Assembly (NCBI GenBank): GCA_014804385.1 | Contig: JAAUZW010000033.1 | Span: forward strand, 8,879-72,878 | Length of the DNA stretch: 64,000 bases | From: Lachnospiraceae bacterium | Lineage (GTDB): Bacteria; Bacillota; Clostridia; Lachnospirales; Lachnospiraceae | Direction of reading: 5' to 3' | In this document: one piece after another, positions 28,027 to 60,828 of the stretch | Position numbering within the stretch: the stretch's first letter is position 1 | Layout: each line of letters opens with the position of its first letter | Position numbers and translations under genes: made by a program | The notes under the pieces: model-generated | Database searches by the model: none | Told to the model about the DNA's origin: nothing | What the model saw: the letters and a program-made list of their open reading frames with translations, nothing else

Positions 28027-30081
28027 TTATAACATATCCGTCATATCTGACATCCGATTAAAGAAAGGATCTTCCACCTTTAGATTTAAGAAATCCTGAT
28101 CTGTAATCTCCACCCTATGAATCATGGATAAAAAGACCTCATCCAGCTTTTTATCTATCTTTCTGGCAGATATGGGGCACAATTTCAGATATTCCCTGAA
28201 ATACTCGCGAATCCCTTCCTGTGCCTCCTGAAAACATCTGATGTCGCCCTCTCTTCTTGTTTCTTCGTCGTATATCGGATTTCCATTTTCATCAAACTCT
28301 CTGACCGAAGGCATCGGCGCTGTCAGCATTGTCTCAAGAATATAGTAATCCTGAAAAATGGCACTGGTATTCCTCTCTAAAGCATTGTAAAAGGAAATGA
28401 TATCCAAATTTTTCCCCTGCATCTGCTCCTCATCTAATCGAAGGAAATAAATCCCTTTTAAATGATTCGTCATTAACCTGCCCATATACATCTGCGTCGT
28501 TCCCTTTGCAACAAAATCAAAGAAAGCGGTGTCTCCCTCATTTAACTCTTGTCTGTCAATATATATTCGATAATTTTTCCTGCTTTGTTCACTACGGTTC
28601 AGAATTTCCTCTTTATAGTCCAATAATTCCGCCCGTTCATCCGTTTCATCCACGTAAATGCCAAACCGCTTTTCAAGTTGTCCGGACAGGCTACCGCTGA
28701 ATTTCATCTCTCCTACATACTCAATATCCTCTTCGTTTTCCATACCAGCCCGTATTGCCGCCGTTCTGGATGTCAGAAAATAAACAGAAGAATTGCTATT
28801 GCAAAGCTCATCATACAGTTGTTTGATCAGGTATCCGTCCCGGGCACAGAAAAGTATGTTCTTCAGTTGAAATTCTCTTACCCTCTCCCGAAACCACAAT
28901 ACAAAATCACATATCATCGGTGCAAAAAAGACATAACCAATCTCATGGGCCGTGCCAACGCCAATCCGCCGTGCTTCTGTCTCAAACTGAAAAGGACTGT
29001 TAAAAACACGGGACACAAACATGCCGATCCTGATTCTGTCCGACAGGGAATCTGTATAATCCCACAATCCCATATATCCTGCCAGTTCCAGCAGATCCAT
29101 TCCGCTGTATAAACGGCAAGCAGCGATTTCGTTTTTTTCGGCATGCTCTATATCCGCAGTTACATCATCCCCGATGTGAAGATACCTCTTCGCTTTCGTC
29201 TCCTGCCGGTATTTCTGAAAAAGCATCTGCGTCTTTCCCGTCTCATATTCGCAGGACACAAACAAACCTGTATACCCTGTAATACCGCATTTCTTCAAAA
29301 TACCCGTAATCTGTTTCTCATTGTAATAAGAATCGGACACCACAAAGACCTGTTTCCCCCGTGCCACTAACGTTGCAAAGATCTCACAGACATCTCTGCG
29401 GGGAACAACAAGGCCACGGTCAATCTCCCACTCTAACATCGCCATCTGCTCCGGCACAATTTCCGCTATATGATAGGTTTTTTTCATATGCGAATAAATT
29501 TCTATCAGTCTTGGCGCCCGCTCCTTGGACAATTCCTTTTCACTTGCCATTCGTCTGACCGAAAAATCTTCTATCATAATACCGTGCTGCCGCAGCCTGT
29601 CATCCATAAGTTCAAACACATCCGTAGGAAATAACGCCTGACGCATGATCAACGTGTCAAACAAATCAAAACTGACAGCATCATACTCTTCTATCTGCCG
29701 CAGCAATTCCTCTCTGGTGATCCCGGACACCTCTCGAAAATCATAAACGGCACGCTGTACGTCACAGAGATCATTTCCTCTTACATCAAACAGGGCGATC
29801 TGCTGCTCTCTGCATACCCCGCCGATCCTCTTGGCAATGGCGCGGCAGGAACCCGGACGCGCCGCAACCACTATCAGCTTGACTTGGCTCGTAAACGCTT
29901 CCTGCAGGGAGATGATCGGCATCCCGTAGAGCATGCCTTCCTCTCTATAGCCATCTAAGAGCCCAATGATCTGAAATGATTGCCGGATCTCATTCAGCAG
30001 ACGTTCCGTCTCTGTTGCCAGTCCATAGATCGCTATCTTCTCTTTTTTATATTGTTCTAATATTTTTAATAAATCTGACAC
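28027..30081 (-). CDS. Three-part protein: N-terminal Rossmann-like module, HAD-superfamily hydrolase domain, uncharacterised C-terminal half
   Basis: 684 aa. The module-like N-terminus is KIAIYGLATETERLL...IIGLLDGY...KLIVVAA. The HAD motif I-like SFDLFDTLIMR and later HIGDD follow. The C-terminal region of about 330 aa has no motif I recognise. Confidence 0.6.
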   Translation of the reverse strand: MSDLLKILEQYKKEKIAIYGLATETERLLNEIRQSFQIIGLLDGYREEGMLYGMPIISLQEAFTSQVKLIVVAARPGSCRAIAKRIGGVCREQQIALFDVRGNDLCDVQRAVYDFREVSGITREELLRQIEEYDAVSFDLFDTLIMRQALFPTDVFELMDDRLRQHGIMIEDFSVRRMASEKELSKERAPRLIEIYSHMKKTYHIAEIVPEQMAMLEWEIDRGLVVPRRDVCEIFATLVARGKQVFVVSDSYYNEKQITGILKKCGITGYTGLFVSCEYETGKTQMLFQKYRQETKAKRYLHIGDDVTADIEHAEKNEIAACRLYSGMDLLELAGYMGLWDYTDSLSDRIRIGMFVSRVFNSPFQFETEARRIGVGTAHEIGYVFFAPMICDFVLWFRERVREFQLKNILFCARDGYLIKQLYDELCNSNSSVYFLTSRTAAIRAGMENEEDIEYVGEMKFSGSLSGQLEKRFGIYVDETDERAELLDYKEEILNRSEQSRKNYRIYIDRQELNEGDTAFFDFVAKGTTQMYMGRLMTNHLKGIYFLRLDEEQMQGKNLDIISFYNALERNTSAIFQDYYILETMLTAPMPSVREFDENGNPIYDEETRREGDIRCFQEAQEGIREYFREYLKLCPISARKIDKKLDEVFLSMIHRVEITDQDFLNLKVEDPFFNRMSDMTDML

Positions 30082-30118
30082 GTTGCTCCTTCTCTACTAC
30101 ATTATTTTATATTTTCAT

Positions 30119-32527
30119 TCATACCAGTCCAAAAGCCATCATCGTCTGCCTATCTTTGATCAGCATCTCATCCGGCAGGTGAATCTTCTCCTTCGGACAA
30201 ATGCGCACTAAGTCGTCATAAATCAATCTCGTCACCTTTGCAAAAGAACTCGCCACCACCACTGCATCGTGCTCATATTCCGGAATTTCTGACGGGGCAA
30301 TCGCCGGAAATCCCAGCTTCCTGACCTCTTCCCAATTTCTGTCAGACACGGCTACGACCTGGCAATATCCTGTTCTCTCCAGATATCGATACAGATGCTG
30401 CCCATATGTACCCATCGCATACACGATTACGCGTCCCCCCCTTTTTACTCCCGGGAAGGGGAAAAGATGATCCAATCCATCTATACCTTCATATAACGTT
30501 CCCGCCCGCGGTGTCATCAGGAAAAGAATAAACGCTCTCCACTGTTCCCGCAGATCATAAATGGCTGCTTTCTCCTCAAACACCCTGTTACCACTCTCAT
30601 ACAATAAACGAAAGCGTCTTCTTTCTGCTTCAGGCTCTCCCTCGCTTTTGATCAGGGAAGAGCCGGTCTGTCTGTAATGATACAGGCATCTATGTATGAC
30701 ATAAATACTGTCCGCCGCGAGCAGACATGGATACACACAAACAGCATCCTCGCCCATCACAATGCGTTCATCGGTTCCCATTAAAAACGGTTCTATACAT
30801 TCCCGTCGAAATAATTTATCCCACAGAACAGGAAAAATACCCCATTCAAAAAAGCTTCTATTTACGATCATACGAGGATATACCTGCTCCAGTAACGACT
30901 CCTTGTCATAATACCCTTCTTCGATGCCATGGAACACTTCTTTATGACTCTCTCCAATGTCTTCAAATCGGCCACACATGACCACATCCGCATCATTTTT
31001 TACCATCTCACGATACAGACATTCCACCATATCCGGTTCCATCCAGTCATCCGCATCCGCAAAGCCAATATACTGTCCCGCCGCCATCTGCAGTCCCGCT
31101 TTGCGGGCGCTGGTATGGCCCCCGTTCTCCTTACTGACAACTCTGATTCGTGAATCACGGCTCTGATACTGGCGGCAAATCTCCAGAGAACGATCCGTGG
31201 ATCCGTCATCCACCAGAATAATATCCAGATTTTGATAAGTCTGTGCACAAATGCTTCCGATACACTCTGCCAAATACGTCTCCGCATTATACACAGGTAC
31301 AATGATGCTTACAAGGGGTTCTCCCGTCCAATAAGCTGTGAAATTATGATGTGTCTTACGTTTGCTTTCCTCCGGCAGTTCCATCCAGTCATTGCCATAC
31401 AAATTTTCCAAATAATCACGGTATCCGCCGGGCACATTTACTGTCAAATCTTCAAACGGCATACGGAGTGTTTTGTCATACACTGCTCTCGGGGCACAAT
31501 CCCGATCTTCATAGATCGTTCCCAAAACACCCACGCAGGACGCCTGATCGAAATCATATTTCGACATATAAGCCTTTTGTCTCTCAAACCAGTCGTCAAA
31601 AACGCTAAGGTCTCCATTTCCCGCGTAAAACGCCTGCCAAATCTGTCTGTTCAGCTCCTTATATTCCGCGTAAAATAATGCTCTCTCCTGCGAGTTATCA
31701 GGCAGACCAATCAGCGGAAACAGGTCGATCCACATAGGATTTGTCTTCTGCACGGTACCGATATTCTCTAAAACAATGGTTCTTTTATCCACCACTTTAG
31801 CGAGCGGATCCGGATAATCATTGTGTCTCTCTGTACCAAAACCCACTAACCCCAGTTCTTCTGTTTCCTCAAACAGCTCCATAAATCTCTGATAATCTTC
31901 CCACGGAAGGAAAATATCAACATCGTCATCCCACGGAATATATCCTTTATGGCGAATCGTTCCCAGCAGGGTGCCGCTGCACACCCAGTAACGCAGCCCG
32001 TGTTTCCTACAAAAATCATCCACATAAGCCAGAATCCGCTTTGCTGTCAGTTTGATCTCCGGAAGAGACATCGGCACCTTGTCCCGTAAATAAGCCTCTT
32101 CTTCCGGATCGGCAAAATCAGTGACCACATAGAAATGCTCTCTCTCCCGATAGCCCATCTGCTCTAAAACAGCACATACCGCAGCCGCCTGACGGGATGC
32201 AATCAATATCAGTACGGAATCATCAAAGGGCTGCAGCCGCTCCTGCACCGTCCAGCTTTGAATCACATCATCGCGTCCGTTTAGGAAACGACAGGCAAAG
32301 TTTTCCGTATCTCTTCTGTACTGTATGACCGCCGCCCTGTCGTCAGATATATACCCTTCTATCCGCTGATAACCCAGATTAGAAAGGATCGTACGCATCG
32401 CAAATCCATACCTCTCCAGTCCGTACAGCAGCACTTTCCTGCCCTGATCCATCACACCCTTTGCGATCAGATCTTCTATCCCATCGGCAATCTGACCGAT
32501 AAAACTTTTCATTTTGTATGATCCCAT
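30119..32527 (-). CDS. Four-part protein: module, LicD-family phosphotransferase, GT2 glycosyltransferase, module
   Basis: 802 aa. The N-terminal module is RKVLLYGLERYGFAMRTIL...GYISDD. The LicD core is CSGTLLGTIRHKGYIPWDDDVDIFLPWEDY. The GT2 domain is VSIIVPVYNAETYL...ILVDDGSTDRS...ADADDW. The C-terminal module is GRVIVYAMGTYGQHLYRYL...VAVSDRN...HDAVVVAS. Confidence 0.8.
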   Translation of the reverse strand: MGSYKMKSFIGQIADGIEDLIAKGVMDQGRKVLLYGLERYGFAMRTILSNLGYQRIEGYISDDRAAVIQYRRDTENFACRFLNGRDDVIQSWTVQERLQPFDDSVLILIASRQAAAVCAVLEQMGYREREHFYVVTDFADPEEEAYLRDKVPMSLPEIKLTAKRILAYVDDFCRKHGLRYWVCSGTLLGTIRHKGYIPWDDDVDIFLPWEDYQRFMELFEETEELGLVGFGTERHNDYPDPLAKVVDKRTIVLENIGTVQKTNPMWIDLFPLIGLPDNSQERALFYAEYKELNRQIWQAFYAGNGDLSVFDDWFERQKAYMSKYDFDQASCVGVLGTIYEDRDCAPRAVYDKTLRMPFEDLTVNVPGGYRDYLENLYGNDWMELPEESKRKTHHNFTAYWTGEPLVSIIVPVYNAETYLAECIGSICAQTYQNLDIILVDDGSTDRSLEICRQYQSRDSRIRVVSKENGGHTSARKAGLQMAAGQYIGFADADDWMEPDMVECLYREMVKNDADVVMCGRFEDIGESHKEVFHGIEEGYYDKESLLEQVYPRMIVNRSFFEWGIFPVLWDKLFRRECIEPFLMGTDERIVMGEDAVCVYPCLLAADSIYVIHRCLYHYRQTGSSLIKSEGEPEAERRRFRLLYESGNRVFEEKAAIYDLREQWRAFILFLMTPRAGTLYEGIDGLDHLFPFPGVKRGGRVIVYAMGTYGQHLYRYLERTGYCQVVAVSDRNWEEVRKLGFPAIAPSEIPEYEHDAVVVASSFAKVTRLIYDDLVRICPKEKIHLPDEMLIKDRQTMMAFGLV

Positions 32528-32561
32528 ACGAATTCTCCATTTTCAGCCGCATGCGGCTCTC

Positions 32562-33680
32562 TTAAGACATCAGAAACCGCATATAATTCTCTTTATTTTC
32601 CTTTGCGGTGGTGGTGGGTCTGCCCAGATCCTCTCTGGAACCAATGGCACACTTTACCTCGATCAGCGATAAATCCCGCCTTTCTTTGGCGTTTGTCAGT
32701 TCTGTTTTTAGTGCCTCAAGGCTGGCTACCGTCACCGCATTCGGATAACCGCATACTCTCGCGATCTCCGAAAAATTCAGATTACCCATCACCGTCGGCT
32801 GACCGCCCACAGTCTCATGCGCACCGTTGTTGATGATAATATGGATCAGATTCCGTGGACGGTGATTCGCGATTACCGGCATCGCCCCCATATGCATCAA
32901 CGCTGCGCCATCCCCATCAATACACCAGATCGTCTTATCCTGTCGCTGCAACGCCACACCCAGAGCAATGGAGCTGCAATGTCCCATGGATCCTACCGTT
33001 AAAAAGTCCCTCTCATGAGACTGTCCCAACCCTGTCCTGATCTCGAACAGCTCTCTGGACGCCTTACCTGTGGTGCTGACGATCGGGTCATCACCGCTTT
33101 GCTCCACAATACACTTGATGATCTCTTCCCTGCACAGGGTATTGCCATTTTGATAAACCACCTTGCCGTCATATTGCAGGGCGCCTTTACGGACAACGAA
33201 CGCCACGTCCTTCCCCTGCTTAAGCTCTTTTTGGAAATTGTCCATGCACTGCCGCACTTCCTCATCTGAGGTCTCTTCACCAATTACATAATAGGAAATG
33301 CCCATATCTTCCAAAAGCCGACAAGTTATCTCTCCCTGATAAATGTGCTGTGGTTCGTCATGCACACCCGGCTCGCCACGCCACCCGACGACAAAAATCA
33401 TGGGAATCCCATAGACCTTATCATGCAGAAGACTCGCTACCGGATTGACAATATTACCCTCACCGCTATTTTGCATATACACCACAGGAACCTTGCCTGT
33501 CGCCAAATGATATCCGGCCGCCAACGCCACGCAATTCCCCTCGTTTGCCGCAATGATATGATGGCTGGAATCAATGCCGTAAGTATTCATGAGATAATTA
33601 CACAGCGCTTTGAGTTGACTGTCCGGCACTCCCGTGTAAAAATCCGCCCCCAAAACACTCACAAATTCTTCAACTTTCAA
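32562..33680 (-). CDS. Phosphonopyruvate decarboxylase (ThDP-dependent)
   Basis: 372 aa. The N-terminus FYTGVPDSQLKALCNYL and the ThDP motif IDGDGAALMHMGAM...NNGAHETVGGQ are typical of Ppd/AepY. It is clustered with PEP mutase. Confidence 0.8.
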   Translation of the reverse strand: MKVEEFVSVLGADFYTGVPDSQLKALCNYLMNTYGIDSSHHIIAANEGNCVALAAGYHLATGKVPVVYMQNSGEGNIVNPVASLLHDKVYGIPMIFVVGWRGEPGVHDEPQHIYQGEITCRLLEDMGISYYVIGEETSDEEVRQCMDNFQKELKQGKDVAFVVRKGALQYDGKVVYQNGNTLCREEIIKCIVEQSGDDPIVSTTGKASRELFEIRTGLGQSHERDFLTVGSMGHCSSIALGVALQRQDKTIWCIDGDGAALMHMGAMPVIANHRPRNLIHIIINNGAHETVGGQPTVMGNLNFSEIARVCGYPNAVTVASLEALKTELTNAKERRDLSLIEVKCAIGSREDLGRPTTTAKENKENYMRFLMS

Positions 33681-37735: not shown

Positions 37736-37739
37736 GTTC

Positions 37740-38426
37740 TCACCTCACCACACTCCAAACATCTATAATCGGACAGTCTACGATGTCCATCAGCTCCTCC
37801 TCCAGATAGATGTAACGCGCCTGATCCGCCACCACGATAGCATCTGCGGCCCCGGACACTTCCTGCAGATTCCCCGCTCTCATTTCCATGACAATACTGG
37901 AACCGTCGATCTCCTGCTCCAGCCAGTCCGCCAGCACGCCCTCTCCATAAAACTGAATCCGCCTTAGGTCATTGCTGAGAAAATATTCCGCAAACTGTCT
38001 GCCCTGTTTCTTCCTGCGCTTCCCCCGTTCCAGAACGACAGCCTCCGCCCAGCCCGGTACCATCAGGATTCTCTCGTCAAACAGCAGCCGCGGTCCGTAA
38101 AACAACGGCATGACAATATCTTTTAGAGCTACGCCATCCCCCAGTAACTGTGTCAAAACAGCTTCCTGAATCGGCCAATCCGCCACTCCCAGCACAAAAA
38201 GATAATTCTTTTTCGGAAGCTCCCTATAAGGAATAACCGGAAACCCATGATACTCTGTTCCTTTCAATGCCTGGTTATTGTCGCAGATACACGTCGGCAC
38301 AATATGCCTTTGCAGCAGTTCATTCACTATATGTTTACCAAACATCCCTGCCCCAAATACAATTGCCTCCCTACCGTCTGTATGCACTTCATCCAAATCA
38401 AACGTTAATCCTGTCTCTATGCCCAT
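37740..38426 (-). CDS. Protein made of two tandem Rossmann-like modules, no catalytic domain recognised
   Basis: 228 aa. The first module is EAIVFGAGMFGKHIVNELL...CICDNN...YLFVLGV. The second, more degenerate module is IQFYGEGVLADWLEQEI...ADAIVVAD...CPIIDVWSV. Confidence 0.65.
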   Translation of the reverse strand: MGIETGLTFDLDEVHTDGREAIVFGAGMFGKHIVNELLQRHIVPTCICDNNQALKGTEYHGFPVIPYRELPKKNYLFVLGVADWPIQEAVLTQLLGDGVALKDIVMPLFYGPRLLFDERILMVPGWAEAVVLERGKRRKKQGRQFAEYFLSNDLRRIQFYGEGVLADWLEQEIDGSSIVMEMRAGNLQEVSGAADAIVVADQARYIYLEEELMDIVDCPIIDVWSVVR

Positions 38427-38429
38427 ACA

Positions 38430-39650
38430 TTACCTTTCCCATGCCTTGATACAGGCATTTTTTATTGATTCCACATCATCCGGAAAGCCGTCTGACAGTC
38501 GCAAAATCTTATCATCAGGAATCCCTTGCTCTTTTATCCATGAAGCAATCTGTTTTGATACCCGCTCATCTAACACAGCCACAACCACCTTGTCAAACTC
38601 CTTTGTGAGAAAACTGTCTATGGCATCCACCAGCACCCCCTGCGCTCTCCGATTTTGCCAATCCGCATCCACCCACGCCACGATCTCCACTTGCTGCTGC
38701 TCTAAATACTCTCTGAGCTTTTTGCCGCAATCTCCTGCCCCATAGAGAACGATCCGGTCCGAACGCTTTGCCCCACCGCTAAACGGCGCTAAAACACCTC
38801 CATTAGTGAATATGTCATCAAAAAAAGTCATATCCTTATTCCAATAATACCTTTTTACATCCAACCAGAACAGTGTTTCATAGACGTCCCAACTCTCCGT
38901 ATCCATGATCCGCTGACAGCTTTCCATCCTAAGACGTATGTCCAAGAGTTTTTCCAATATTTCCCGCTTTCTGTGTGTCACAGAAGCATCCCACTGCCTG
39001 TAGTGGTAACCGCCCCGTTCTAAAAGCACCACCTTGTCCGCCCGGCTCACGGCGCCAAACACAGCCACAGAATCTTCGCTCACCAGAATCCTGTCATCTA
39101 CCAGTGGCATAATTTCTGCCAGCAATTCTTTCTTAAACAGCTTTGACCACAGGCTTCTGGACAGCTCTTTCGGCGCAAACAGCCGTTCCTTTGCTACGCA
39201 GCGAAGTAGAGCTTTTCCTGTATACACTCCGACCGGACACCCGTATTTCATCTGTCTGGTTATTTCAAGGTGCTCTAAAAAAGTAGACTGCACACAGACC
39301 ATATCGATACTTTCATCCGTCACTGCCTCTGCGAACTTTTCATAATAATCCGCATCTATCCAGTCATCCGCATCTATAAACCCCACATACTCACCCGATG
39401 CCATACGCAGCCCTGCTTTGCGTGCGCTGGTGTGCCCGCCGTTATCCTGATGAAGCAGTTTGATGCGTGAATCCTGTTCTTTGTACCGGCTGCAGATTTC
39501 AAAAGAGCGGTCTGTCGAGCCGTCATCCACCAGAATGATCTCCAATTTTTGGTATGTCTGCTTACAGATACTCTCTATACATTCCGGCAGATATGGCTCT
39601 GCATTATAAATTGGCACGATAATACTGATCAAAGGATTTAAGCTCTCCAT
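38430..39650 (-). CDS. GT2 glycosyltransferase with C-terminal Rossmann-like module
   Basis: 406 aa. ISIIVPIYNAEPYL...ILVDDGSTDRS...IDADDW closely parallels the GT2 part of the 802-aa protein. The C-terminus is DRIVLYGAGDCGKKLREYL...VAWVDAD...FDKVVVAV. Confidence 0.8.
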   Translation of the reverse strand: MESLNPLISIIVPIYNAEPYLPECIESICKQTYQKLEIILVDDGSTDRSFEICSRYKEQDSRIKLLHQDNGGHTSARKAGLRMASGEYVGFIDADDWIDADYYEKFAEAVTDESIDMVCVQSTFLEHLEITRQMKYGCPVGVYTGKALLRCVAKERLFAPKELSRSLWSKLFKKELLAEIMPLVDDRILVSEDSVAVFGAVSRADKVVLLERGGYHYRQWDASVTHRKREILEKLLDIRLRMESCQRIMDTESWDVYETLFWLDVKRYYWNKDMTFFDDIFTNGGVLAPFSGGAKRSDRIVLYGAGDCGKKLREYLEQQQVEIVAWVDADWQNRRAQGVLVDAIDSFLTKEFDKVVVAVLDERVSKQIASWIKEQGIPDDKILRLSDGFPDDVESIKNACIKAWER

Positions 39651-39689
39651 GACAAATCCTTTCCTTCCCTAATAACGCCTGGTTTCTCA

Positions 39690-40166
39690 CTATACTTCGT
39701 ACAGAATATCCTCCAGCGAGATAACCGGGCAGTCTACCTTTTCAGACATCATTTCCTCGATCTCATCAAAGAACGTGATCGCCGTCACCACAATCACATC
39801 CACCGGCGCAAGCTCATCATCCGGCGTGACGATGTCCACATCCGCATAAAGCTGATCTGCATTCTTGTCAATGGCATAACTTACCGTAATATCTGTACCT
39901 TTCAGTTCATCGCACAAGCGCTCTCCCAGTTCTTTCATACCATAGACTGCCACCGTCTTATATCCATTCTTCTGAAAATACTCCGCTAATGTCTTCCCCT
40001 CCTGACGGATCCGGAGCCACTGATCAAAAGCCGTGTAAAGCGCATAGAGTTTCTTCCCATTTGCCTGCGTCTTTTGCAGTTTCTCCGATGATTTCGTTCC
40101 CACAGCGATTCCTCCTGCCGCTGCGCCTGCCGCCATACCTAATAATGCTGAAATTCCTTTGTTCAT
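39690..40166 (-). CDS. Small protein: Gly/Ala-rich hydrophobic N-terminus, helical linker, single Rossmann-like module
   Basis: I prefer the ATG at 40166 after AAAGGAGAG (MNKGISALLGMAAGAAAGGIAVG...). The linker is YTAFDQWLRIRQEGKTLAEYFQKNGY and the module is KTVAVYGMKELGERLCDEL...YAIDKN...VDVIVVTA...CPVISLEDILYE. Confidence 0.65.
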   Translation of the reverse strand: MNKGISALLGMAAGAAAGGIAVGTKSSEKLQKTQANGKKLYALYTAFDQWLRIRQEGKTLAEYFQKNGYKTVAVYGMKELGERLCDELKGTDITVSYAIDKNADQLYADVDIVTPDDELAPVDVIVVTAITFFDEIEEMMSEKVDCPVISLEDILYEV

Positions 40167-40258: not shown

Positions 40259-41803
40259 TTATCGCTGTTCTAACGCAAGCTCCTGCATGATCTCCTCTAT
40301 TGTGATCTTCGGGCATTTCATTGTTTTGCTAAGCATGCTGCTGACCTCTGCATATTGATCTGTAACAGTCATAACAACAGCATCTACTTCCGGCATTTCC
40401 TGTTCTGGAGCGTATATCTCCAGCCCTTGAATTTTCTTGCACGCCCTGTTATTTTTATCAATACCATACACTACCCGGATATCGCTCCGCTCCAATTCAT
40501 GCAACAGATGCCTCCCCAATTTTCCCATTCCATAAATTGCAATATGCTGATATCCGTATCTGTTAAAATATTGAGAGACATTAACCTCATGCTCCTTCAA
40601 ATACAACCAGTCATCCAGCAGTTGATCGTGCCTTCGTAGAATCTGAAAAGCTGTTTCCTTCTCCCTCAAAATCCTTTCCACTTCTGTCTCAAAAAACGCT
40701 TCCGCGTCCTTCTTTTCTTCCAGTAAAACTCCACTGCGCTCCTCGACAACCCTTTTTACCGCTTCCAGATAGCCGTACCCATAAGTCTCATCCGGTTCCA
40801 GATACATGCCCTCTCCCCACTCATTCCATGCATTCAGAAACACAAATTCATGATCAAGAAGCATACTTTTTCGATATAACTTTTTTAAATACTCATAAAA
40901 TTTTTCCGGACAGGCCCCTTCCATGATACTTCCCTTTTTTCCCCGCCTCGGCGTATCATCATAATCAACCAGTCCACACAGATAGGTCGTTTTACTTTGT
41001 AATCTTTTCTCCAAGATTGCTTCCCAAATTCTATCATAAGACCATCTGAGCGGTTGTTGCGTCATCCGATACTTTGTCATCACGTCTCTTTTGCTCTGCT
41101 GGGGCTGCTTTATGAAAGCCGCATCCGTCCCCGGCAGTTGTTCCTCTTCCATTCCAATCACATAAATACCGGGCAAGCCATTCTCTTTCGCTCTTGTCTG
41201 AAAATACTGCATCATATCCCACAGGGAAGAAATAAACAACGGCTTATAAATAAGAAAAACCGGTTTATCACTTATTTTGATATATCTGTCATCCCTAAAA
41301 AAAGGCAATAAGTATTGAAAATGCTCCTCCCAATCCTTTTCTCGCCCATAGCATTGCCCCAGCAGCACTCCCTTTTCTTCCGGATTGCTCTGATTTTCTT
41401 CGCCCTTCAGCCAACTATCAGAATTTCCTATGTTCGCCCATGTTCTGACCCATGTCATATTAGCCCAACAGAAACAAAACGGCATAGAAATATCTTTCCA
41501 CCGCAACAGGTTCTCTGCGGGTTTTTCCAATACCTTTCGCCCCTTCGCAAACCAGTAGTGGTACATACACATCCCATCAATATGGTATTTATGCATGAGT
41601 TCCGCCTGCCATGCCATTGTATCATATTCAAGCAGATTATAATAATTATGATCAAGCGGTACTCTAGGCTGATTATGCTCCTCGTACAGCTTATCCGCCG
41701 CCTTTACGGCAGTCCACTCCGTATATCCCTCTCCCCACCACTGATCGTTTTCAGGAATCCTGTGAAATTGAGGAAGATACATGGCAATTGTTTTTGGTCT
41801 CAT
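40259..41803 (-). CDS. WbsX / GH99-like domain protein with C-terminal Rossmann-like module
   Basis: 514 aa. IAMYLPQFHRIPENDQWWGEGYTEWTAV is the WbsX-type N-terminus. The C-terminus is DDWLYLKEHEVNVSQYFNRYGYQHIAIYGMGKLGRHLLHEL...YGIDKN...VDAVVMTV...CPKITIEEIMQE. Confidence 0.7.
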   Translation of the reverse strand: MRPKTIAMYLPQFHRIPENDQWWGEGYTEWTAVKAADKLYEEHNQPRVPLDHNYYNLLEYDTMAWQAELMHKYHIDGMCMYHYWFAKGRKVLEKPAENLLRWKDISMPFCFCWANMTWVRTWANIGNSDSWLKGEENQSNPEEKGVLLGQCYGREKDWEEHFQYLLPFFRDDRYIKISDKPVFLIYKPLFISSLWDMMQYFQTRAKENGLPGIYVIGMEEEQLPGTDAAFIKQPQQSKRDVMTKYRMTQQPLRWSYDRIWEAILEKRLQSKTTYLCGLVDYDDTPRRGKKGSIMEGACPEKFYEYLKKLYRKSMLLDHEFVFLNAWNEWGEGMYLEPDETYGYGYLEAVKRVVEERSGVLLEEKKDAEAFFETEVERILREKETAFQILRRHDQLLDDWLYLKEHEVNVSQYFNRYGYQHIAIYGMGKLGRHLLHELERSDIRVVYGIDKNNRACKKIQGLEIYAPEQEMPEVDAVVMTVTDQYAEVSSMLSKTMKCPKITIEEIMQELALEQR

Positions 41804-41818
41804 ATGTATTTCTCCTAA

Positions 41819-43414
41819 CTAATAAATTTTTTCCCTGGCTACTCCCATCTGCACACACATATCCGTTACTTCTCTCTTTATTCTGCCATTCCTTATCGCA
41901 ACAAACAGAACGTCAAAATCAAGACTCTCTATGCACGCAGGCGCCTCTATTTCTCTTCCAAAAATGCGCGGAAACTGCTTATAATTTTGATCTGTCCACG
42001 CCACAATGTCCACCTGTGAGGCAAGGTTTTCATAAAAATATTTTCCATAGTTCCCGGCTCCATACAACAGAACCCGCTTTCCTTTCAAATATCTGCCATA
42101 AATATCAAACTCTTCATAAATGCCAGTCTCTGCGGCATAAAGCGACGTTTTTGCCCGCTCCCGCACATCACGCTCCGCCCATCCGTAATGAATATTCTGA
42201 AAATCTATCTCCCAGAGAAAATCCTCACATTCGGCAGATTGATACAGGCTTTCCACTTCTTTCATCAAACGTTCTCTGAATTCATAAAAAATATATACTG
42301 TCTGCGCTAATGCACTTTCATCCATCAAATAAGTAAAATGATATTTCATCCTCTGACGAGCTGCCTGATTCAACGTCAACTCTTTTCCATCAAAATCAAA
42401 ATAATCTAACAGATTATGCTGACAGCCGCTGTCCATGCCGATATGATACAGTTCCATTCCCTGATCGCCGGTCAAAAACAAAAAGCTTCCGTCCGTCAGG
42501 CTGTATGCCTTATGAAAACTATTTTCCCTAATCTTCTGAGCCGCATACGCATTTCTCGCAAATGCGTATTTTCTTTGGGGCAACAGCAAATCCTTTCGTT
42601 CCAGTTTATGCTCCGGCAAACCGAGCATCTGCATGACCAGATCCTTTATGTCTGTTGTGGAGACCAGAGCATCTATCTCTTCCGCATCAAAACGACTGTC
42701 GTAGATGAAAAGCGGCGTATGTATCAACGATTCATAGGGTTCAATCGCATGCGTCAGACCATTATGCTTTCCATGCGCAAAAACCTCATCCCCATGATCC
42801 CCATAAAAAACGACCGTCGTGGATTCCAGCAGTTGCTTTTGCTCCAAAAGATCCATGATATCCCCGGCCGCAGAATCCATACCCCGATATCCGCTTTCCC
42901 ATCGCTCTAACCCTGTCTGTCCTTCCACATTTTCCATAAAACGGTTAAAGCTTACATTACTGATATAGTTACAAGTCCATATCGCAAAAGGACTTTCTTT
43001 TGTCATCGCTTTTTCTATTGTCTGCAGATATTGCTCATAAGATGCTACTACATCCATTTCCGTCTCATATCCGATAAAATAGTTTTCATTTCCTCCAACA
43101 AAACTCCCCGAGTCATCCTGCGGATACCCCAGCGCCCATACTTGGTATCCTTTCTTTTTTAATTCATCCAGAAACGACTCCGAACCGCAGTGCTTCTTTA
43201 GTTTCTCATTCAGGTAGCTACATGATTCGTACTGCAACACACTCCCATATGCCAAATCAGAACATATCATTATAGTTGAGGTTGCAGTTGCAAAATATTT
43301 TGTAAAAAAAAGAGAATTATGTTCCCACTGGCGCAATGTCGGCCATAGCTGTGCATTTATTTTATAATTTGTGTAGTTAAGGCTCTCCAAATGAATCAAT
43401 ACCAAATTTCTCAT
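41819..43414 (-). CDS. Sulfatase-fold (LtaS/phosphotransferase-like) domain without TM anchor, plus C-terminal Rossmann-like module
   Basis: 531 aa. It has LVLIHLESLN, ATATSTIM (candidate nucleophile Thr/Ser region) and VVFYGDHGDE. The C-terminus is KRVLLYGAGNYGKYFYENL...VAWTDQN...FDVLFVAI. I see no hydrophobic helix. Confidence 0.6.
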   Translation of the reverse strand: MRNLVLIHLESLNYTNYKINAQLWPTLRQWEHNSLFFTKYFATATSTIMICSDLAYGSVLQYESCSYLNEKLKKHCGSESFLDELKKKGYQVWALGYPQDDSGSFVGGNENYFIGYETEMDVVASYEQYLQTIEKAMTKESPFAIWTCNYISNVSFNRFMENVEGQTGLERWESGYRGMDSAAGDIMDLLEQKQLLESTTVVFYGDHGDEVFAHGKHNGLTHAIEPYESLIHTPLFIYDSRFDAEEIDALVSTTDIKDLVMQMLGLPEHKLERKDLLLPQRKYAFARNAYAAQKIRENSFHKAYSLTDGSFLFLTGDQGMELYHIGMDSGCQHNLLDYFDFDGKELTLNQAARQRMKYHFTYLMDESALAQTVYIFYEFRERLMKEVESLYQSAECEDFLWEIDFQNIHYGWAERDVRERAKTSLYAAETGIYEEFDIYGRYLKGKRVLLYGAGNYGKYFYENLASQVDIVAWTDQNYKQFPRIFGREIEAPACIESLDFDVLFVAIRNGRIKREVTDMCVQMGVAREKIY

Positions 43415-46216: not shown

Positions 46217-46256
46217 ACAAAACCCACCTCTCTACCGAAAAATACGTTTTCCCACA

Positions 46257-47132
46257 TCATCCCAGCTTTCCTTCCATCAATGCCTGATAAAAACTGTCAA
46301 TATCTCCCCTCAAAAATCTCTTCTTATAGGACAGCTTGTGTACCGGCGTATTGCCTCTCAAGATCTCCCAATCCCGCTCTTTAAATTCCCGCCCTAGTCG
46401 TCTCCAAAGAATATGCGGTGTGCTGTTATTGAAATAGGGAATTTCATTAAAAATCCTTTTACATTCCGCATCCGCGTCTATCAGTCGGGATATCATGATA
46501 TGCAAAACAAAATAATTATGAATATCTGTCTCCTGTTCCCAGAAGTCATACAGCATATTACGCACGGCATGCATCAAGCGATTTGTTTTTTCAGCACACA
46601 ACCACCAGCTCGACATTTTGATCACCAGTTTTTCCGTGATCGAATCCTGAAACAGAAACATCTCGCCGCTTACCATATATTCCGGAACAGGTCCGCTGCA
46701 GAAAACAGTTGCATCCACCCAGCAACCGCCATATGTGCAAAGCAATTCGACACGAATAATATCCGACAAATGTGTTGTTGTTATGTAGCCCTGCTCATAT
46801 TTGTCCCAAATAAACCTCGGTAAACTCACATATTCTCTCAAATTTTTATCTGTCAATAAAATAATATCATATCCCTGCGGCACATTTTTGCAAACAGATT
46901 CGTAACATTTTCGTACCAATGCAGGCGCATTCTCCATTCCCTGCATCCAGAATATCCAAATTGTCTTGTTTTGCTTTACCGAATTTACATTCTGTATATC
47001 TGCTATCGCAAATGTCTTCTCATTGATATATTTGTCCAGATATCGATAAACTTTACTGAATTCCAATTCCTTTTCAATCTGATCTTTATATAAAAACTGT
47101 TCTAAATCCATTTGCAGCTCCTTGCAGGTCAT
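46257..47132 (-). CDS. Capsular-polysaccharide-synthesis family protein (Caps_synth/GT32-like)
   Basis: 291 aa. It has TIWIFWMQGMENAPALVRKC and a later DIIRVELL...GGCWVDATV pattern typical of this family (from memory). Confidence 0.55.
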   Translation of the reverse strand: MTCKELQMDLEQFLYKDQIEKELEFSKVYRYLDKYINEKTFAIADIQNVNSVKQNKTIWIFWMQGMENAPALVRKCYESVCKNVPQGYDIILLTDKNLREYVSLPRFIWDKYEQGYITTTHLSDIIRVELLCTYGGCWVDATVFCSGPVPEYMVSGEMFLFQDSITEKLVIKMSSWWLCAEKTNRLMHAVRNMLYDFWEQETDIHNYFVLHIMISRLIDADAECKRIFNEIPYFNNSTPHILWRRLGREFKERDWEILRGNTPVHKLSYKKRFLRGDIDSFYQALMEGKLG

Positions 47133-48658
47133 ATGCTATAACTTTCAAATATAACATCCTCTAAACTCACAACCGGTATTTCCGTTAACTTCGCCAGCAT
47201 CTTTTGAATATTTGCGTGATCAAAAATAGCTGTGTTCACAATCGCATCTACACACGGTAATTCTCCGACAGGCTGTCGCACCTCAATCCCCATATAGGGA
47301 TTTATCTTGTTTCTGTCAATTCCATATACAATAGTAATATCGGTTGCCTGTAATTCTCTTATAACATGCCTGCCACATATAGCCATCCCATATATTGCAA
47401 TAGAGCGATACCCTTTCGCTGCCAGATAATCGGCAATGCTCTTTCTTTCCTGCTTCAGTATCAGCCACTGATCCATCATGTCGCGATATCGTTTATCACG
47501 GTTTCCCGCTTTCTGCGGTTCTGTCATCTGCTGATGCTCATATTCGTAGAACAAAACTTCTTCTATGGAAAACATGGGACAGGATAATGTGACAGAAAGG
47601 CTGTCCCTGATTTCCAGAAAATCAAAAATCGGCGTAATCACAACTGCATCCACCATTTCCAATGCTTCATCCGGATGTAAAACCGGTACTCCCCATTTTG
47701 CTTTTTGGGGACTTCTGTCAATACCATATTTAACCGTTATCCCACTGTTCTGCAGCTCGTCATAAAGCCGCTGCCCCATATTATGAACGCCGTATATTGC
47801 AATGGTCTTTATCTTCTTATGAGCAAAGAACAAACTCAAGCTGATACCCTGTTGTTTCAACATCAGCCATCGATTCATAAATTCATACATAAAATGCTCT
47901 TTCTTCTTCTGTACAAAGAGCTGCTTAACTTCTCTGCCATAGGGAAATCCGGTGCGGGGAAAATGTTTCCCGATCACTTCAAAGTACTCTTTCCAATGTA
48001 TCTTCTGATATTTAGTCTGAAAAGTAATTCCGCTGATATCGTAATCTACCACAACAGCATTCAATTTTATTATTTTTCTACCTGCATTTACCTGACGGCA
48101 TATCCAGTCATAGTCCGCGCAGGTCGTATATCGTTCATCAAACCCCTCTGTCAAGGTATCTTTTGCCGCAAAAATCACCTGATGGCAAACACTTTCTCCT
48201 TTTTTCAAATTGTTCAGCAGATCCTCTCCAACCGGATATATATGTCTGGACAGTCCGTTTTCCCTTTTGAACGCTACATCACCGATTATGACATCTGTCC
48301 CATCCGCTATTTCTGCTGCTCTTTGGAGTATATCCGCACTGTGAAACTCGTCCCCCGCATTCAAAAACAGGAGAAAATCACCTTGCGCACGCTGAACTCC
48401 TTTATTCATGGCATTAAAGACACCGTCATCCGGCTCAGAGCGCCACTGTACTCTTGCATCTATCCCGGCATATTCCTGTATGACAGCCACCGTTCCATCC
48501 GTAGACGCGCCATCCACAATAATATATTCAAAATTTTCATAATCCTGCCTTAGCACAGATTCCATCGTCGGACGGATTACCTTTTCCGCATTAAAGCAAA
48601 CCGTAATAATGCTGAATTTAACACTTTTCCCCAATTTCACTGCTTCAGTATCCCCCAT
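47129..48658 (-). CDS. GT2 glycosyltransferase with two tandem C-terminal Rossmann-like modules
   Basis: 509 aa. The GT2 domain is FSIITVCFNAEKVI...IIVDGASTDGT...LNAGDEF. Module 1 is NRWLMLKQQGISLSLFFAHKKIKTIAIYGVHNMGQRLYDEL...YGIDRS...VDAVVITP...CPMFSIEEVLF. Module 2 is DQWLILKQERKSIADYLAAKGYRSIAIYGMAICGRHVIREL...YGIDRN...VDAIVNTA...IPVVSLEDVIFE. Confidence 0.8.
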   Translation of the reverse strand: MGDTEAVKLGKSVKFSIITVCFNAEKVIRPTMESVLRQDYENFEYIIVDGASTDGTVAVIQEYAGIDARVQWRSEPDDGVFNAMNKGVQRAQGDFLLFLNAGDEFHSADILQRAAEIADGTDVIIGDVAFKRENGLSRHIYPVGEDLLNNLKKGESVCHQVIFAAKDTLTEGFDERYTTCADYDWICRQVNAGRKIIKLNAVVVDYDISGITFQTKYQKIHWKEYFEVIGKHFPRTGFPYGREVKQLFVQKKKEHFMYEFMNRWLMLKQQGISLSLFFAHKKIKTIAIYGVHNMGQRLYDELQNSGITVKYGIDRSPQKAKWGVPVLHPDEALEMVDAVVITPIFDFLEIRDSLSVTLSCPMFSIEEVLFYEYEHQQMTEPQKAGNRDKRYRDMMDQWLILKQERKSIADYLAAKGYRSIAIYGMAICGRHVIRELQATDITIVYGIDRNKINPYMGIEVRQPVGELPCVDAIVNTAIFDHANIQKMLAKLTEIPVVSLEDVIFESYSI

Positions 48659-48820
48659 ATAATGAAATGATCAAATATCACGGTCTAACAAATGAAAACA
48701 CATCACACCTGTACTCACTATTATGTGTAACCTCATCATAATTTGTAGGTATCCATATCATATTCGACTTTTCCTTTGGAAATACACGAAAATTCCTGCT
48801 TTTTCGTTTTTTATTTTTAA

Positions 48821-49579: not shown

Positions 49580-49592
49580 TTTAAATTCCTCT

Positions 49593-58890: not shown

Positions 58891-58914
58891 TTTTTCATCA
58901 TCGTCTACTGAAAT

Positions 58915-60828
58915 TTACACTTTTAACTTATACGGTGGTATCCTCTCTTCAGAAATAACAGCCTTTTTCTCTAAAATAGATTCACATATGTAATCCCACA
59001 CCTGATTGTTACCCGCTAATAGATCTTCTGGTCCTCTCATTATCATTTTAGCCCCTGCTTCATAAGTAAATTTATAGAAAGGATTTGGAAGCATATATAC
59101 AAAATAATATAACAGAAAAAATTTCTCAGCTTCATTTTTCATCTTTTTCTTTTGTTCGCTATTTAATGTTATTTTCGTCAACATGTTCAGTGTCTCCTTG
59201 TATTCTTTCACATTAGACACATCGTATGAAAACCCTTTTCCTCTATAAGGTGCGTCTGCAACTACAATAGTCGGTATACTGTTGCAACACATCTCCAAAC
59301 CCACCGTACTTGTATAAACAAGTCCCAAATCCGTATTGTCAAATAAATCATATATGCTTAACGGCGCATCCCCATCAATTAATATAATATTGGATGGTAA
59401 CTTATCATTATATTCCCTTAATACTATTGAACATATTCTTTCCCGCGCCTCAGGAAGGTTTTTATTAATCTCTGCCGGATGTGTCCTTATTATCAGTTGC
59501 CACTCACTATTGTTTGCAAACCAATCTATGGTAAACAATACCCAATCAACAATATTATCAAATACAATATCCCTATCCAATGCTGACGCATCCCATGTGA
59601 TGTTTGTTGCCATTAGAGCTGTCTTTTTCTCTTTATCAAATATGCCGTGTATGGAGTCATCACGTATTTGCTTTACAGATTGGAAAGGATCCGCTGTATT
59701 TATTAACATATCCCCCCCCTTTCTTCGATTCGATATATAATCTGCAATAAATTTACTTTCTTCATCATTTAGTTCAAACTTTGAAAATCCCCGCCATGCA
59801 GAACCCAGGTTTTCCATACTAAGGGTCGATGCATTCATTGCATAGGTATAAGTACCTTTTCTAAAACCATATGCATTATAAAACGGGATATCTTCTCTTT
59901 TAGCTATCTCTTCTAAAATAGAATAGGGATAATAAAAACTATCATTCGAATAAATGATATCAGGTTTTATATCCTCCACTACTGCCATAGAGGCAATGCA
60001 CATAATTACTACATTAAATGCCAAGTCCCGTATTTGCTTTTCCTCAACTTGTGTCCAAACAGTTTTATATGAAATCAAGTAATTATTATAATGTGTTCTC
60101 AAACACCATTTCCCTATTGGAAAGCCATTATATGTCCAGTCTTGTATTGAATTAATATCCAGTCCTTTTACAAAGTCTTTTGCAAAATTTCTTTCTTTTA
60201 CAGTAATATAATCATTAGCATATGTAACGGTGTAATTTCCCCAATCTTCCCAAACTCTCTCATCATACGCTCTACACTTTTTACAATTACCTTTATGAAT
60301 GATTTTTTTCTCATCTCTGTCATCGGCATTATTTCCCCACATGCCACCATAAACAGAACATTCTAACTCCTGTGCACCTCCACAAGCCACCGGAACAACC
60401 TCAGCGCCTCGAAGCCTTAACGATTCCGCCAATAAATAGTCATGTAATCTACAATTCTCATATATTAAGAAGCAATAACCAAATAATATTTTAGGTTCTT
60501 TACACTTCTCTAATTTATATCCTCCTATTTCACGCATAAGAATTTCTTTATTTATAGATCTCACATCTCGTATACTTAGTATCTTTTTCTTTGAAATACT
60601 ATATTTCTCCGTTAATTGCGCATACACATCATCATAATACCGAATTGTTGCCACAATAATAAAATCATATTGACAATGATTTAGAATATCCGGATTTTCA
60701 ACTTTAATCCCATCAAATACTTTACCCTGTTTTTGTGGATCTGAATCAACTAGTCTGTAGTCAAATATCTTAAGATGTTTCCGATTCTTTATGTAATCAT
60801 CCCCAGTTCCCCAAACGATCAGATTCAT
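58915..60828 (-). CDS. N-terminal Rossmann-like module fused to a GT-B-like capsule-synthesis domain (KpsC/KpsS-like)
   Basis: I prefer the ATG at 60828 after AGGAGGG. The module is MNLIVWGTGDDYIKNRKHL...RLVDSD...YDFIIVAT...KILSIRDV. The C-terminal part LIIRTHPAE...YTSTVGLEMCCNSIPTIVVADAPYRGKGFSYDV resembles Capsule_synth-type transferases (from memory). Confidence 0.5.
   Translation of the reverse strand: MNLIVWGTGDDYIKNRKHLKIFDYRLVDSDPQKQGKVFDGIKVENPDILNHCQYDFIIVATIRYYDDVYAQLTEKYSISKKKILSIRDVRSINKEILMREIGGYKLEKCKEPKILFGYCFLIYENCRLHDYLLAESLRLRGAEVVPVACGGAQELECSVYGGMWGNNADDRDEKKIIHKGNCKKCRAYDERVWEDWGNYTVTYANDYITVKERNFAKDFVKGLDINSIQDWTYNGFPIGKWCLRTHYNNYLISYKTVWTQVEEKQIRDLAFNVVIMCIASMAVVEDIKPDIIYSNDSFYYPYSILEEIAKREDIPFYNAYGFRKGTYTYAMNASTLSMENLGSAWRGFSKFELNDEESKFIADYISNRRKGGDMLINTADPFQSVKQIRDDSIHGIFDKEKKTALMATNITWDASALDRDIVFDNIVDWVLFTIDWFANNSEWQLIIRTHPAEINKNLPEARERICSIVLREYNDKLPSNIILIDGDAPLSIYDLFDNTDLGLVYTSTVGLEMCCNSIPTIVVADAPYRGKGFSYDVSNVKEYKETLNMLTKITLNSEQKKKMKNEAEKFFLLYYFVYMLPNPFYKFTYEAGAKMIMRGPEDLLAGNNQVWDYICESILEKKAVISEERIPPYKLKV

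Follow-up and report, generated by a model that had tools for sequence, protein, structure and literature searches.

A small Rossmann-type module on many enzymes of a Lachnospiraceae glycan locus

The DNA analysed here (the window) is a stretch of 64,000 nucleotides from a Lachnospiraceae bacterium (assembly GCA_014804385.1, contig JAAUZW010000033.1, positions 8,879 to 72,878 of the forward strand) and forms part of a 95.8-kb gut-metagenome contig. It carries a glycan locus in which every gene between 27.2 and 63.2 kb lies on the minus strand. Ten of the encoded proteins share a Rossmann-like module of about 90-110 amino acids (aa), the subject of this study. It occurs in 13 copies, on otherwise unrelated enzymes and also in proteins without an enzyme domain.

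Thirteen copies of the module in ten proteins

We excised and aligned the 13 segments that an earlier, sequence-only reading of the window had singled out. The alignment shows a strand that ends in an aromatic residue plus Gly and runs into a glycine loop, an Asp closing the next strand (in 12 of the 13 copies), a Gly ahead of strand 3, and the motif D-x-V-V-V as strand 4. This is the Rossmann-type fingerprint of a glycine loop followed by an acidic residue, just as it had been read from the translations. A profile hidden Markov model (HMM) was built from 526 module copies (80 related loci, described below, plus the window) and scored against the six-frame translation of the whole window (Z=370 open reading frames, ORFs). 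It found exactly the 13 domains already named, all within the same ten proteins, with E-values from 1.2e-37 to 4.3e-4. The next match, the short-chain dehydrogenase/reductase (SDR) Rossmann domain of a UDP-xylose-synthase-like gene, followed at E=0.17, which leaves a gap of nearly three orders of magnitude after the 13th copy.

All copies are encoded on the minus strand, and the E-values in brackets are those of this HMM. A 684-aa HAD-hydrolase protein (gene 28027-30081) begins with copy 1 (29752..30081; E=1.6e-19). The 802-aa LicD-GT2 protein (gene 30119-32527; GT, glycosyltransferase) carries the divergent copy 2 at its N-terminus (32108..32485; E=4.3e-4) and copy 3 at its C-terminus (30149..30481; E=6.6e-19); copy 2 is the weakest of all and has an insertion after beta2. 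A 228-aa protein (gene 37740-38426) is made of two modules, with the PglD_N-like copy 4 as its N-terminal half (38091..38417; E=1.1e-17) and copy 5, consisting of helix, module and CPIID tail, as its C-terminal half (37743..38021; E=2.4e-6). Copy 5 belongs to a subtype with a conserved Trp helix, called W-type below. The C-terminus of a 406-aa GT2 (gene 38430-39650) is formed by copy 6 (38487..38789; E=2.8e-21). Copy 7 (39693..40016; E=1.2e-37), again W-type, belongs to a stand-alone protein (gene 39690-40166 if translated from Met51, 158 aa), which has a hydrophobic, Gly/Ala-rich N-terminal segment (GISALLGMAAGAAAGGIAV; 40101..40157 on the minus strand) as predicted membrane anchor. The W-type copy 8 (40262..40606; E=6.6e-34) is found at the C-terminus of a 514-aa WbsX-family protein (gene 40259-41803), and copy 9 (41822..42133; E=1.9e-20) at that of a 531-aa sulfatase-fold protein (gene 41819-43414). 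A 509-aa GT2 (gene 47129-48658) has two W-type modules in tandem, copy 10 in the middle (47528..47866; E=4.2e-31) and copy 11 at the C-terminus (47132..47464; E=3.4e-27). The divergent copy 12 (53323..53646; E=3e-11) is the N-terminus of a 315-aa protein (gene 52726-53673). Copy 13 (60547..60828; E=6.5e-16) is the N-terminus of a KpsC/S-like protein (gene 58915-60828 with an ATG start, or to 60885 with a TTG start), for which Capsule_synth (PF05159) was matched at E=0.005 only.

The C-terminal 190 aa of the 315-aa protein matched no Pfam, NCBIfam or PDB entry, and the methyltransferase partner that the sequence-only reading had listed for this window was not recovered. The protein was also tried as a full-length relative of 2g6t and as a DUF268/methyltransferase fusion (DUF, domain of unknown function). 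Both assignments were rejected, as no PDB, Pfam or NCBIfam match and no hhalign match to eight partner clusters turned up. Methyltransferase fusions are common in the related loci.

Since the window copies are part of the 526-copy HMM, we added two independent tests. For the first, leave-one-protein-out HMMs were run against the same set of 370 ORFs. They regained nine copies at 1e-5 to 1e-13 (1.1e-5 for copy 1 and 1e-13 for copy 3; copy 8 was regained from non-W copies at 6e-10), the N-terminus of the 315-aa protein at 9e-4 and that of the KpsC/S-like protein at 0.014. These HMMs missed the N-terminus of the LicD-GT2 protein and the C-terminus of the 228-aa protein; the latter was found at 7e-5 with a profile of its four closest copies. 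In every run, the SDR Rossmann domain of gene 55037 came out as the best unrelated match (E about 0.2-1). For the second test, a profile of each segment, with homologues from the 80 related loci, was compared all-versus-all with hhalign. Eleven segments pair with each other at a probability of at least 97% and E <=8e-11; copies 1 and 13 reach at least 97.9% and at least 97.7%, respectively, with the ten other core copies, and copy 5 reaches 100% with the W-type copies. The N-terminus of the 315-aa protein pairs with modules at 70-96% (1e-5 to 1e-8), and that of the LicD-GT2 protein at 83-95% (1e-6 to 2e-8), with non-W copies only.

As controls for these comparisons we used generic Rossmann (NAD-domain) profiles of SDR and zinc-dependent alcohol dehydrogenase (Zn-ADH) proteins and a GT2 core. 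The SDR and Zn-ADH profiles reached 65-93% (E 3e-7 or weaker) against most core modules, as would be expected if the 13 segments were unrelated NAD-binding-like stretches that resemble each other by chance or by general Rossmann character. Because the generic controls come this far, a value of 83-95% alone does not prove specific membership, and we therefore relied on the gaps in E-value and on the differential behaviour of the controls. The core copies match one another at E <=8e-11, compared with 3e-7 at best for the controls, and the 13 HMM matches are set clearly apart from the next one. The two divergent copies match modules but gave about 0% with the SDR and Zn-ADH profiles; they are therefore module-like and not generically Rossmann-like. 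The GT2 core gave about 0% against every module profile. We regard a mere chance resemblance as extremely improbable, and the mutual homology proposed in the sequence-only reading stands. That the SDR and Zn-ADH profiles match the core modules at all also identifies the module as a true member of the Rossmann superfamily. On sequence grounds, we take all 13 copies as confirmed, eleven of them firm and two, the N-termini of the 315-aa and LicD-GT2 proteins, divergent.

Family placement and fold

The fold of the module is known, and the domain is already catalogued (Pfam PF22674). It is almost certainly a Rossmann-type nucleotide-binding domain in minimal form (about 90-110 aa) that belongs to one group with, and lies between, PF22674, PF17836 (PglD_N) and the CoA_binding_3-type DUF of WbaP and CapD. 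The likeness to the N-terminal domain of NeuD/PglD and to the CoA_binding_3 region of CapD/WbaP, which the sequence-only reading had pointed out, is borne out by Pfam and NCBIfam, by profile searches of the PDB (3nkl, 2g6t, 7l7z) and by fold matches.

PglD_N matches four of the 13 copies at E<1 (copy 9 at E=1e-3), and one of them, the C-terminus of the 38430 GT2, exceeds the cut-off of 23.4 bits with a score of 26.4. C2185-like_N (PF22674, version.2, cut-off 27 bits) matches two of the 13 segments at E<1, with 3.7e-4 as the best value. Precomputed labels of PF22674 (version.3), taken from identical proteins in public contigs, are found on the sulfatase-fold protein, the 38430 GT2 and the KpsC/S-like protein and, weakly, on the WbsX and LicD-GT2 proteins, that is on five of the ten. 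The N-terminal region of NCBIfam TIGR03570 (NeuD_NnaD; NeuD/PglB/VioB acetyltransferases) matches three window proteins, copy 4 at E=8.9e-6. TrkA_N, CoA_binding, KARI_N and 2-Hacid_dh_C were matched below threshold, with one CoA_binding match marginally over its cut-off (22.5 bits versus 22.3), and PF13727 (CoA_binding_3) was reported for none of the 13 window copies and for none of 140 sampled ones. Among these 140 randomly sampled modules, PF22674 accounted for 16 matches at E <=1e-3, PglD_N for 11 and Methyltransf_14 for eight. Altogether, Pfam models detect only about 20-25% of the module copies; with two of 13 and 16 of 140 matched by PF22674, most copies lie outside the reach of this model.

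In profile searches of the PDB, the best match was 3nkl (8.4e-7), a fragment from the N-terminus of a WbpM/CapD-type dehydrogenase; 7l7z, a PglD-like acetyltransferase, was matched at 2.4e-3 and the FkbM methyltransferase 2py6, in its N-domain, at E=0.03. With a profile of six window copies, residues 4-89 of 2g6t (CA_C2185) were aligned over the full domain at 2e-3. The contig also encodes, a little upstream, a genuine NeuD-type acetyltransferase whose whole N-domain aligns to the module profiles (82-95%). A classical NAD(P)-dependent dehydrogenase, for which the fingerprint would fit, was rejected as an identity of the module, which is only about 90-110 aa long and lacks a catalytic half; the Pfam dehydrogenase matches on the 13 copies all stayed below their cut-offs. 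There was no Hexapep match in any of the ten window proteins.

An AlphaFold2 (AF2) model of the stand-alone protein, based on a 60-sequence alignment, has a mean predicted local distance difference test score (pLDDT) of 85.7. A single long helix (residues 5-55), which takes in the hydrophobic segment, leads into a compact beta-alpha-beta-alpha-beta domain with pLDDT >90; past the W-helix, the module comprises about five strands and three helices. In the AF2 model of the 228-aa protein the secondary-structure elements follow in equal order in both halves, and copy 4 is a beta-alpha-beta-type domain with pLDDT 85-94. Foldseek against the PDB placed the W-type model next to Rex NADH sensors (probability 0.99-1.0) and 3nkl (0.98). 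For copy 4 the probability was 1.0 to 3nkl, VioB and WbaP; the 228-aa model superimposes on the VioB N-domain with an rmsd of 2.0 A over 82 columns (23% identity) and on the WbaP DUF (8t53) with one of 2.8 A over 95 columns, and it matched 3nkl with a TMt of 0.58 and also PglB-AT. Among the best 50 Foldseek matches listed, 2g6t did not appear.

Forms of the module, related loci and gene neighbourhood

The C-terminal C-P-[VIM]-h-[ST]-h-E-[ED] tail and the W-L-x-L-K-Q helix, both of which had been described for the module at large, do mark a real subtype: they are characters of the W-type and as such of five of the 13 copies, but not general features. In the window these five are found in the stand-alone protein, at the C-terminus of the WbsX-family protein, twice in the 47129 GT2 and at the C-terminus of the 228-aa protein; the remaining eight copies are PglD_N-like. 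The related loci contain 103 stand-alone and 33 fused W-type modules, the fused ones always C-terminal, besides 376 copies of other types.

The gene at 39690 can be read as a 208-aa ORF, but translation most likely starts at Met51, giving a protein of 158 aa as in its homologues. About 100 of these were found, of about 158 aa each, mostly from Lachnospiraceae and named 'hypothetical protein', and many carry the PF22674 label; one variant contig annotates the protein itself at 158 aa. The N-terminal segment has a mean Kyte-Doolittle value of 1.71 here and of 1.92 averaged over 60 homologues, and 79 of the 102 stand-alone copies of the related loci have such a hydrophobic segment.

These loci were obtained by scanning the GTDB species representatives for the stand-alone protein, which is encoded in 188 places; the best 80 of the 188 were taken as loci of 20 kb each. 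Nearly all are from Lachnospiraceae, many of them from mouse gut, and several genomes have two. The HMM of the 13 window copies identified 512 modules in 509 ORFs, typically 5-8 per locus and up to 11. Modules were N-terminal in 207 ORFs, C-terminal in 167 and stand-alone in 123. The spread over many enzyme classes, for which the sequence-only reading knew of no other locus, was seen in all 80 loci examined; the window locus is no exception in this respect.

After masking of the module, 384 fusion proteins fell into 61 partner clusters, and Pfam searches with representatives of the 30 largest clusters gave roughly 30 enzyme types. The glycosyltransferases among them are GT2, GT2+FkbM, GT1/GT4, GT-D, WbsX, GT11, RgpF, GT8 and TOD1/MUCI70, and the methyltransferases are several class I S-adenosylmethionine (SAM)-dependent enzymes, TylF and CmcI-type proteins. 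Further partners are radical SAM enzymes with and without SPASM, polysaccharide and PIG-L deacetylases, HAD, LicD, WcbI, TupA ATP-grasp and hexapeptide acyltransferases, and proteins with DUF268, DUF1796 or DUF1919. Predicted transmembrane segments are absent from 312 of 351 fusion proteins.

The position of the module is mostly constant within each partner family. For 295 of 386 fused modules the nearest relative has the identical partner, and the nearest relative lies in the same locus for only seven of 511 modules; many of the fusions must therefore be old and stable. Recent shuffling does not account for them, and concerted evolution within a locus, which was considered as well, was rejected on the latter count.

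A search of a representative library of 1.84 billion proteins with the 13-copy profile gave 13,287 clusters at E <=1e-3 and 2,425 at E <=1e-10. The best matches include proteins with three tandem modules and little else (P0127, P0128, P0125, P0213), a GT2 that has four modules in tandem (P0124), a protein in which two modules, the first of them W-type, lie between a hydrophobic N-terminus and a GT4 domain (P0123), and one with the order GT4-module-WbsX-module (P0160). In P0123, P0124, P0125, P0127, P0128 and P0213 each repeat is preceded by 'FPYHLF' and followed by 'GV/IPxxxIxWDGxxY'.

Taken together, the module is an accessory domain that Lachnospiraceae glycan loci use promiscuously, and it takes four forms. 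It is attached to either terminus of soluble enzymes that build or tailor glycans; it makes up a W-type stand-alone protein of 158 aa with hydrophobic N-terminal segment and conserved Trp helix; it occurs in a two-module protein without enzyme domain, here the 228-aa protein; and, elsewhere, it forms proteins of three tandem modules only. The sequence-only reading had set its proposal against a characterised domain of defined function that is routinely fused to such enzymes. The domain is indeed known and routinely fused, but no function is defined for it in these fusions.

The locus brings together several donor pathways. At the downstream edge of the locus (25300-27947, minus strand) lie genes for an IspD/TarI-like cytidylyltransferase, a TarJ-like Zn-ADH and a ribulose-phosphate 3-epimerase, a set that fits CDP-ribitol synthesis as judged from the encoded proteins. 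A phosphonate pathway is encoded at 32562-36842 (minus strand), with a 672-aa NTP_transf_3 + CTP_transf_like + PEP_mutase fusion, an iron-dependent alcohol dehydrogenase (Fe-ADH) and a phosphonopyruvate-decarboxylase-like thiamine pyrophosphate enzyme; the two LicD proteins flanking these genes probably transfer the activated phosphonate. The locus also contains the UDP-xylose-synthase-like SDR, a DegT aminotransferase, an FkbM methyltransferase and a radical SAM enzyme. Upstream, beyond window position 64000, follows a nonulosonic-acid pathway with two NeuB proteins, a CMP-nonulosonic acid (CMP-NulO) synthetase, an SDR dehydratase and two PglD_N+Hexapep acetyltransferases, and a helix-turn-helix regulator gene forms the upstream end. 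No flippase, ATP-binding cassette (ABC) exporter, polymerase or initiating phosphoglycosyl transferase was seen in the approximately 50-kb locus, of which not every gene was Pfam-scanned, and only six of the 80 related 20-kb loci encode a polytopic membrane protein. A reading of these loci as flagellin-glycosylation islands was not supported, with flagellin within 10 kb in only one of the 80.

Several further features concern the build of the locus. Reading the translations by eye, we noted a RelB/DinJ-like antitoxin ORF (51434-51709, minus strand) and a YafQ/RelE-like toxin ORF (51211-51441, minus strand) in its middle. Beside this pair lie a near-copy of the C-terminal half of the DegT aminotransferase of gene 53872 (51788-52315, minus strand) and a near-copy of the N-terminal half of the class I methyltransferase of gene 48821 (52233-52601, minus strand); these remnants (51788-52601) look like a recombination scar or cassette junction. 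The GC content steps down from about 0.45-0.51 at 28-40 kb to 0.39-0.43 at 40-54 kb and 0.32-0.35 at 56-62 kb, which suggests a mosaic of blocks of different origin. Gene 45071 (minus strand, 381 aa) encodes an NTP-transferase domain with about 130 further residues, and of a class I/II aminotransferase, gene 44396 (minus strand, 218 aa) has only the C-terminal portion; together (44396-46216) they look like a split or frameshifted cytidylyltransferase-aminotransferase fusion. For the 403-aa protein at 60929-62140 (minus strand), no Pfam family was among the precomputed labels.

Putative nucleotide site, proposed role and known systems

Of 519 unique copies, 97% keep the first Gly of the loop, 98% have an aromatic residue ahead of it and 88% have the Asp that closes beta2. 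The third loop position is Gly in 73% and Ser in 17%, and the last Gly is kept in 67%, with Ala in 14%. Since mean column identity across the copies is only about 15%, the conservation of the Gly loop and the Asp stands out. In VioB, which binds dTDP at this site, Gly8 and Gly11 abut the ribose and the beta-phosphate, Asp32 hydrogen-bonds the ribose and the backbone of Asn33 holds the base (PMC9271549). Based on the shared motifs and the alignment of the NeuD-type N-domain, rather than on a direct alignment with VioB, we take the Gly loop and the D-N at the end of beta2 of the module to correspond to these contact residues.

One use of such a site would be that of a handle: the module would hold the nucleoside diphosphate (NDP) or CMP part of a nucleotide-linked sugar for the catalytic domain fused to it and would have no part in regulation or assembly. 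This role has been demonstrated for the homologous domain of VioB/PglD-type acetyltransferases (PMC9271549), whose contact residues are kept; the classical PglD_N+Hexapep architecture is found among the related loci and also on this contig, a little upstream, and many partners plausibly act on NDP-sugars (methyltransferases, radical SAM enzymes, deacetylases, TylF/CmcI-type proteins). However, a handle leaves the stand-alone 158-aa protein, the two-module protein without enzyme, the triple repeats and the tandem copies unexplained, and glycosyltransferases already own an NDP-sugar site. Moreover, a module that sits at one end or the other of the enzyme, set off by long linkers or helices, is less likely to share an active-site cleft with it. 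We therefore consider this explanation rather unlikely.

The DUF of WbaP offers a second model. It forms the dimer interface, binds UMP, UDP and UTP in thermal-shift assays and has been proposed to be allosteric (PMC10942596). By analogy, the module may be a nucleotide-binding regulatory and assembly domain of this kind, a reading that we favour tentatively and give somewhat less than an even chance. A nucleoside phosphate would be bound by the glycine loop together with the Asp-Asn that closes strand 2; candidate ligands are UMP/UDP or CMP/CDP (pathway by-products or handles) and, for the W-type, possibly NAD(H). Modules would self-associate in nucleotide-dependent pairs, and in this way the activities of many otherwise unrelated enzymes would be tied to a single common signal. 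Soluble enzymes could be gathered at the membrane-anchored stand-alone copy, for which the 228-aa protein, with one module of each type, might serve as adaptor.

Self-association is suggested by the WbaP DUF dimer, by the anchored stand-alone form, by the tandem and module-only proteins, and by the fact that the fusions are soluble and their partners have no common substrate. Much the same evidence, namely the anchored, adaptor-like and repeat-only proteins and the soluble partners without common substrate, could be claimed by a pure oligomerisation or docking domain, which would have lost ligand binding and would build a multi-enzyme complex on the anchored hub with its Rossmann motifs kept for folding only. 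The dimer interface of WbaP (PMC10942596) and the frequent loss of the middle Gly of GxGxxG in the W-type would agree with this idea. Conservation of the Asp in 88% and of the first Gly in 97% of very divergent copies, however, exceeds the usual needs of fold maintenance, and modules are not packed against each other in the predicted 228-aa model. Such a domain without a ligand seems unlikely to us.

Several observations weigh against the favoured regulatory and assembly reading itself. The middle Gly of the loop is Ser in 17% of the copies, with Ser as the consensus in the stand-alone family, and the conservation of the loop could be purely structural. In the AF2 model of the 228-aa protein (based on a five-sequence alignment) the predicted TM score (pTM) is 0.49, the linker has pLDDT <50 and there is no confident packing of the modules. 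The Foldseek E-values are weak (1.6e-3 or worse), as one would expect of a 90-aa Rossmann core, and many generic Rossmann folds match as well. The 80 loci were retrieved via the stand-alone gene, so that its co-occurrence with the fusions is biased, and the modules of one locus are rarely closest relatives (seven of 511), giving no sign of co-evolving partners. Finally, the topology of the stand-alone protein is ambiguous: the flanks of its hydrophobic segment have equal net charge, with more Lys/Arg on the module side, and these counts would favour a cytoplasmic module. If the module faced outward, the tether model would fail.

A further possibility is that the module binds an acceptor feature shared by all partners, such as the pyrophosphate of an undecaprenyl-PP-glycan or the phosphodiester repeats of a teichoic-acid-like polymer, and so lends each tailoring enzyme affinity for one and the same growing chain. 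All partners would then work on one glycan, and tandem repeats would suit a repetitive polymer. The Gly loop of VioB touches the pyrophosphate via backbone amides (PMC9271549), a triple-module protein adjoins a GT2-GT2-TagF-like polymerase, and the window locus appears to make CDP-ribitol and CMP-phosphonate-type donors. The conserved Asp, the ribose-binding residue, favours a nucleoside over a bare phosphate, and we judge acceptor binding very unlikely. The regulatory and assembly reading can also be extended to a full cohesin-dockerin-like assembly system for cytoplasmic glycan synthesis, with an anchored hub, enzyme-less two- or three-module adaptors or scaffolds, and one or two modules as 'plugs' on each of dozens of soluble enzyme families. 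Pairing would be gated by a pathway nucleotide, and precursor supply would thus switch the entire assembly line. In this complete form it must be regarded as quite unlikely.

Lachnospiraceae are dominant gut commensals, their surface glycans are almost unstudied, and one small domain sits on a large part of the enzymes of their glycan loci. Should this domain serve as a common nucleotide sensor or docking unit, it would represent a general principle that coordinates soluble glycosyltransferases, methyltransferases, phosphotransferases and deacetylases, and dozens of enzyme families would join the WbaP DUF, the single experimental precedent. With a better profile, thousands of 'hypothetical' regions would be better annotated, and the module might serve as a marker for glycan-tailoring genes. 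Its presence on acetyltransferases, on WbaP/CapD and on one FkbM methyltransferase is already documented by structures. A full-text literature search gave no paper on the C2185-like domain, PF22674 or 2G6T in this sense, and a search on DUF1919, DUF268, WbsX and FkbM pairings gave nothing relevant. As far as the searched literature shows, the approximately 60 partner clusters, the density of 5-8 copies per 20 kb (13 in about 33 kb of the window), the stand-alone form with its hydrophobic anchor and the module-only repeat proteins are undescribed.

Among catalogued families, PF22674, named for CA_C2185 (PDB 2g6t), labels half of the window proteins with a module and most of the 158-aa stand-alone homologues; it has no assigned function. 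For a DUF1919 fusion encoded in one of the related loci the score is 46.9 bits, well over the cut-off of 27 bits, and judging from the lengths this fusion is the more likely counterpart of the 2g6t-type architecture. A GT-D fusion was rejected for this place, as it matches 5v4a/4phr via its GT-D part only. With PglD_N of class I sugar N-acetyltransferases (PglD, NeuD, VioB, PerB) the module has the fold and several motifs in common: h-h-h-Y-G-x-G/S-x-x-G, the D-D/N closing beta2 and the D-x-V-V-V of beta4. In contrast to PglD_N, none of the 13 copies precedes a left-handed beta-helix, the partners are unrelated enzymes joined at either terminus, and stand-alone and repeat-only forms exist.

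Rex, a repressor that senses NADH/NAD+, gave the top structural matches for the W-type model. Like the KTN/RCK domains (TrkA_N), Rex has a small ligand-sensing Rossmann domain that works as a dimer, and KTN domains exist both tethered and free. Unlike these, the module has no DNA-binding or channel partner and its Pfam scores are mostly below the cut-offs; the similarity may reflect the common Rossmann core only.

The CoA_binding_3-type DUF (PF13727) of WbaP and CpsE and of PglF/CapD/WbpM is likewise an accessory, non-catalytic domain on glycan enzymes, and 3nkl is the best PDB relative of the module by sequence profile and by fold. It differs in that no four-helix membrane bundle precedes the module and in the far wider range of partners of the latter; no phosphoglycosyl transferase or SDR dehydratase with a four-helix bundle is among the module proteins of the window. 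Compared with these systems, the module is not a new kind of system but a well-defined domain-of-unknown-function problem with one experimental precedent.

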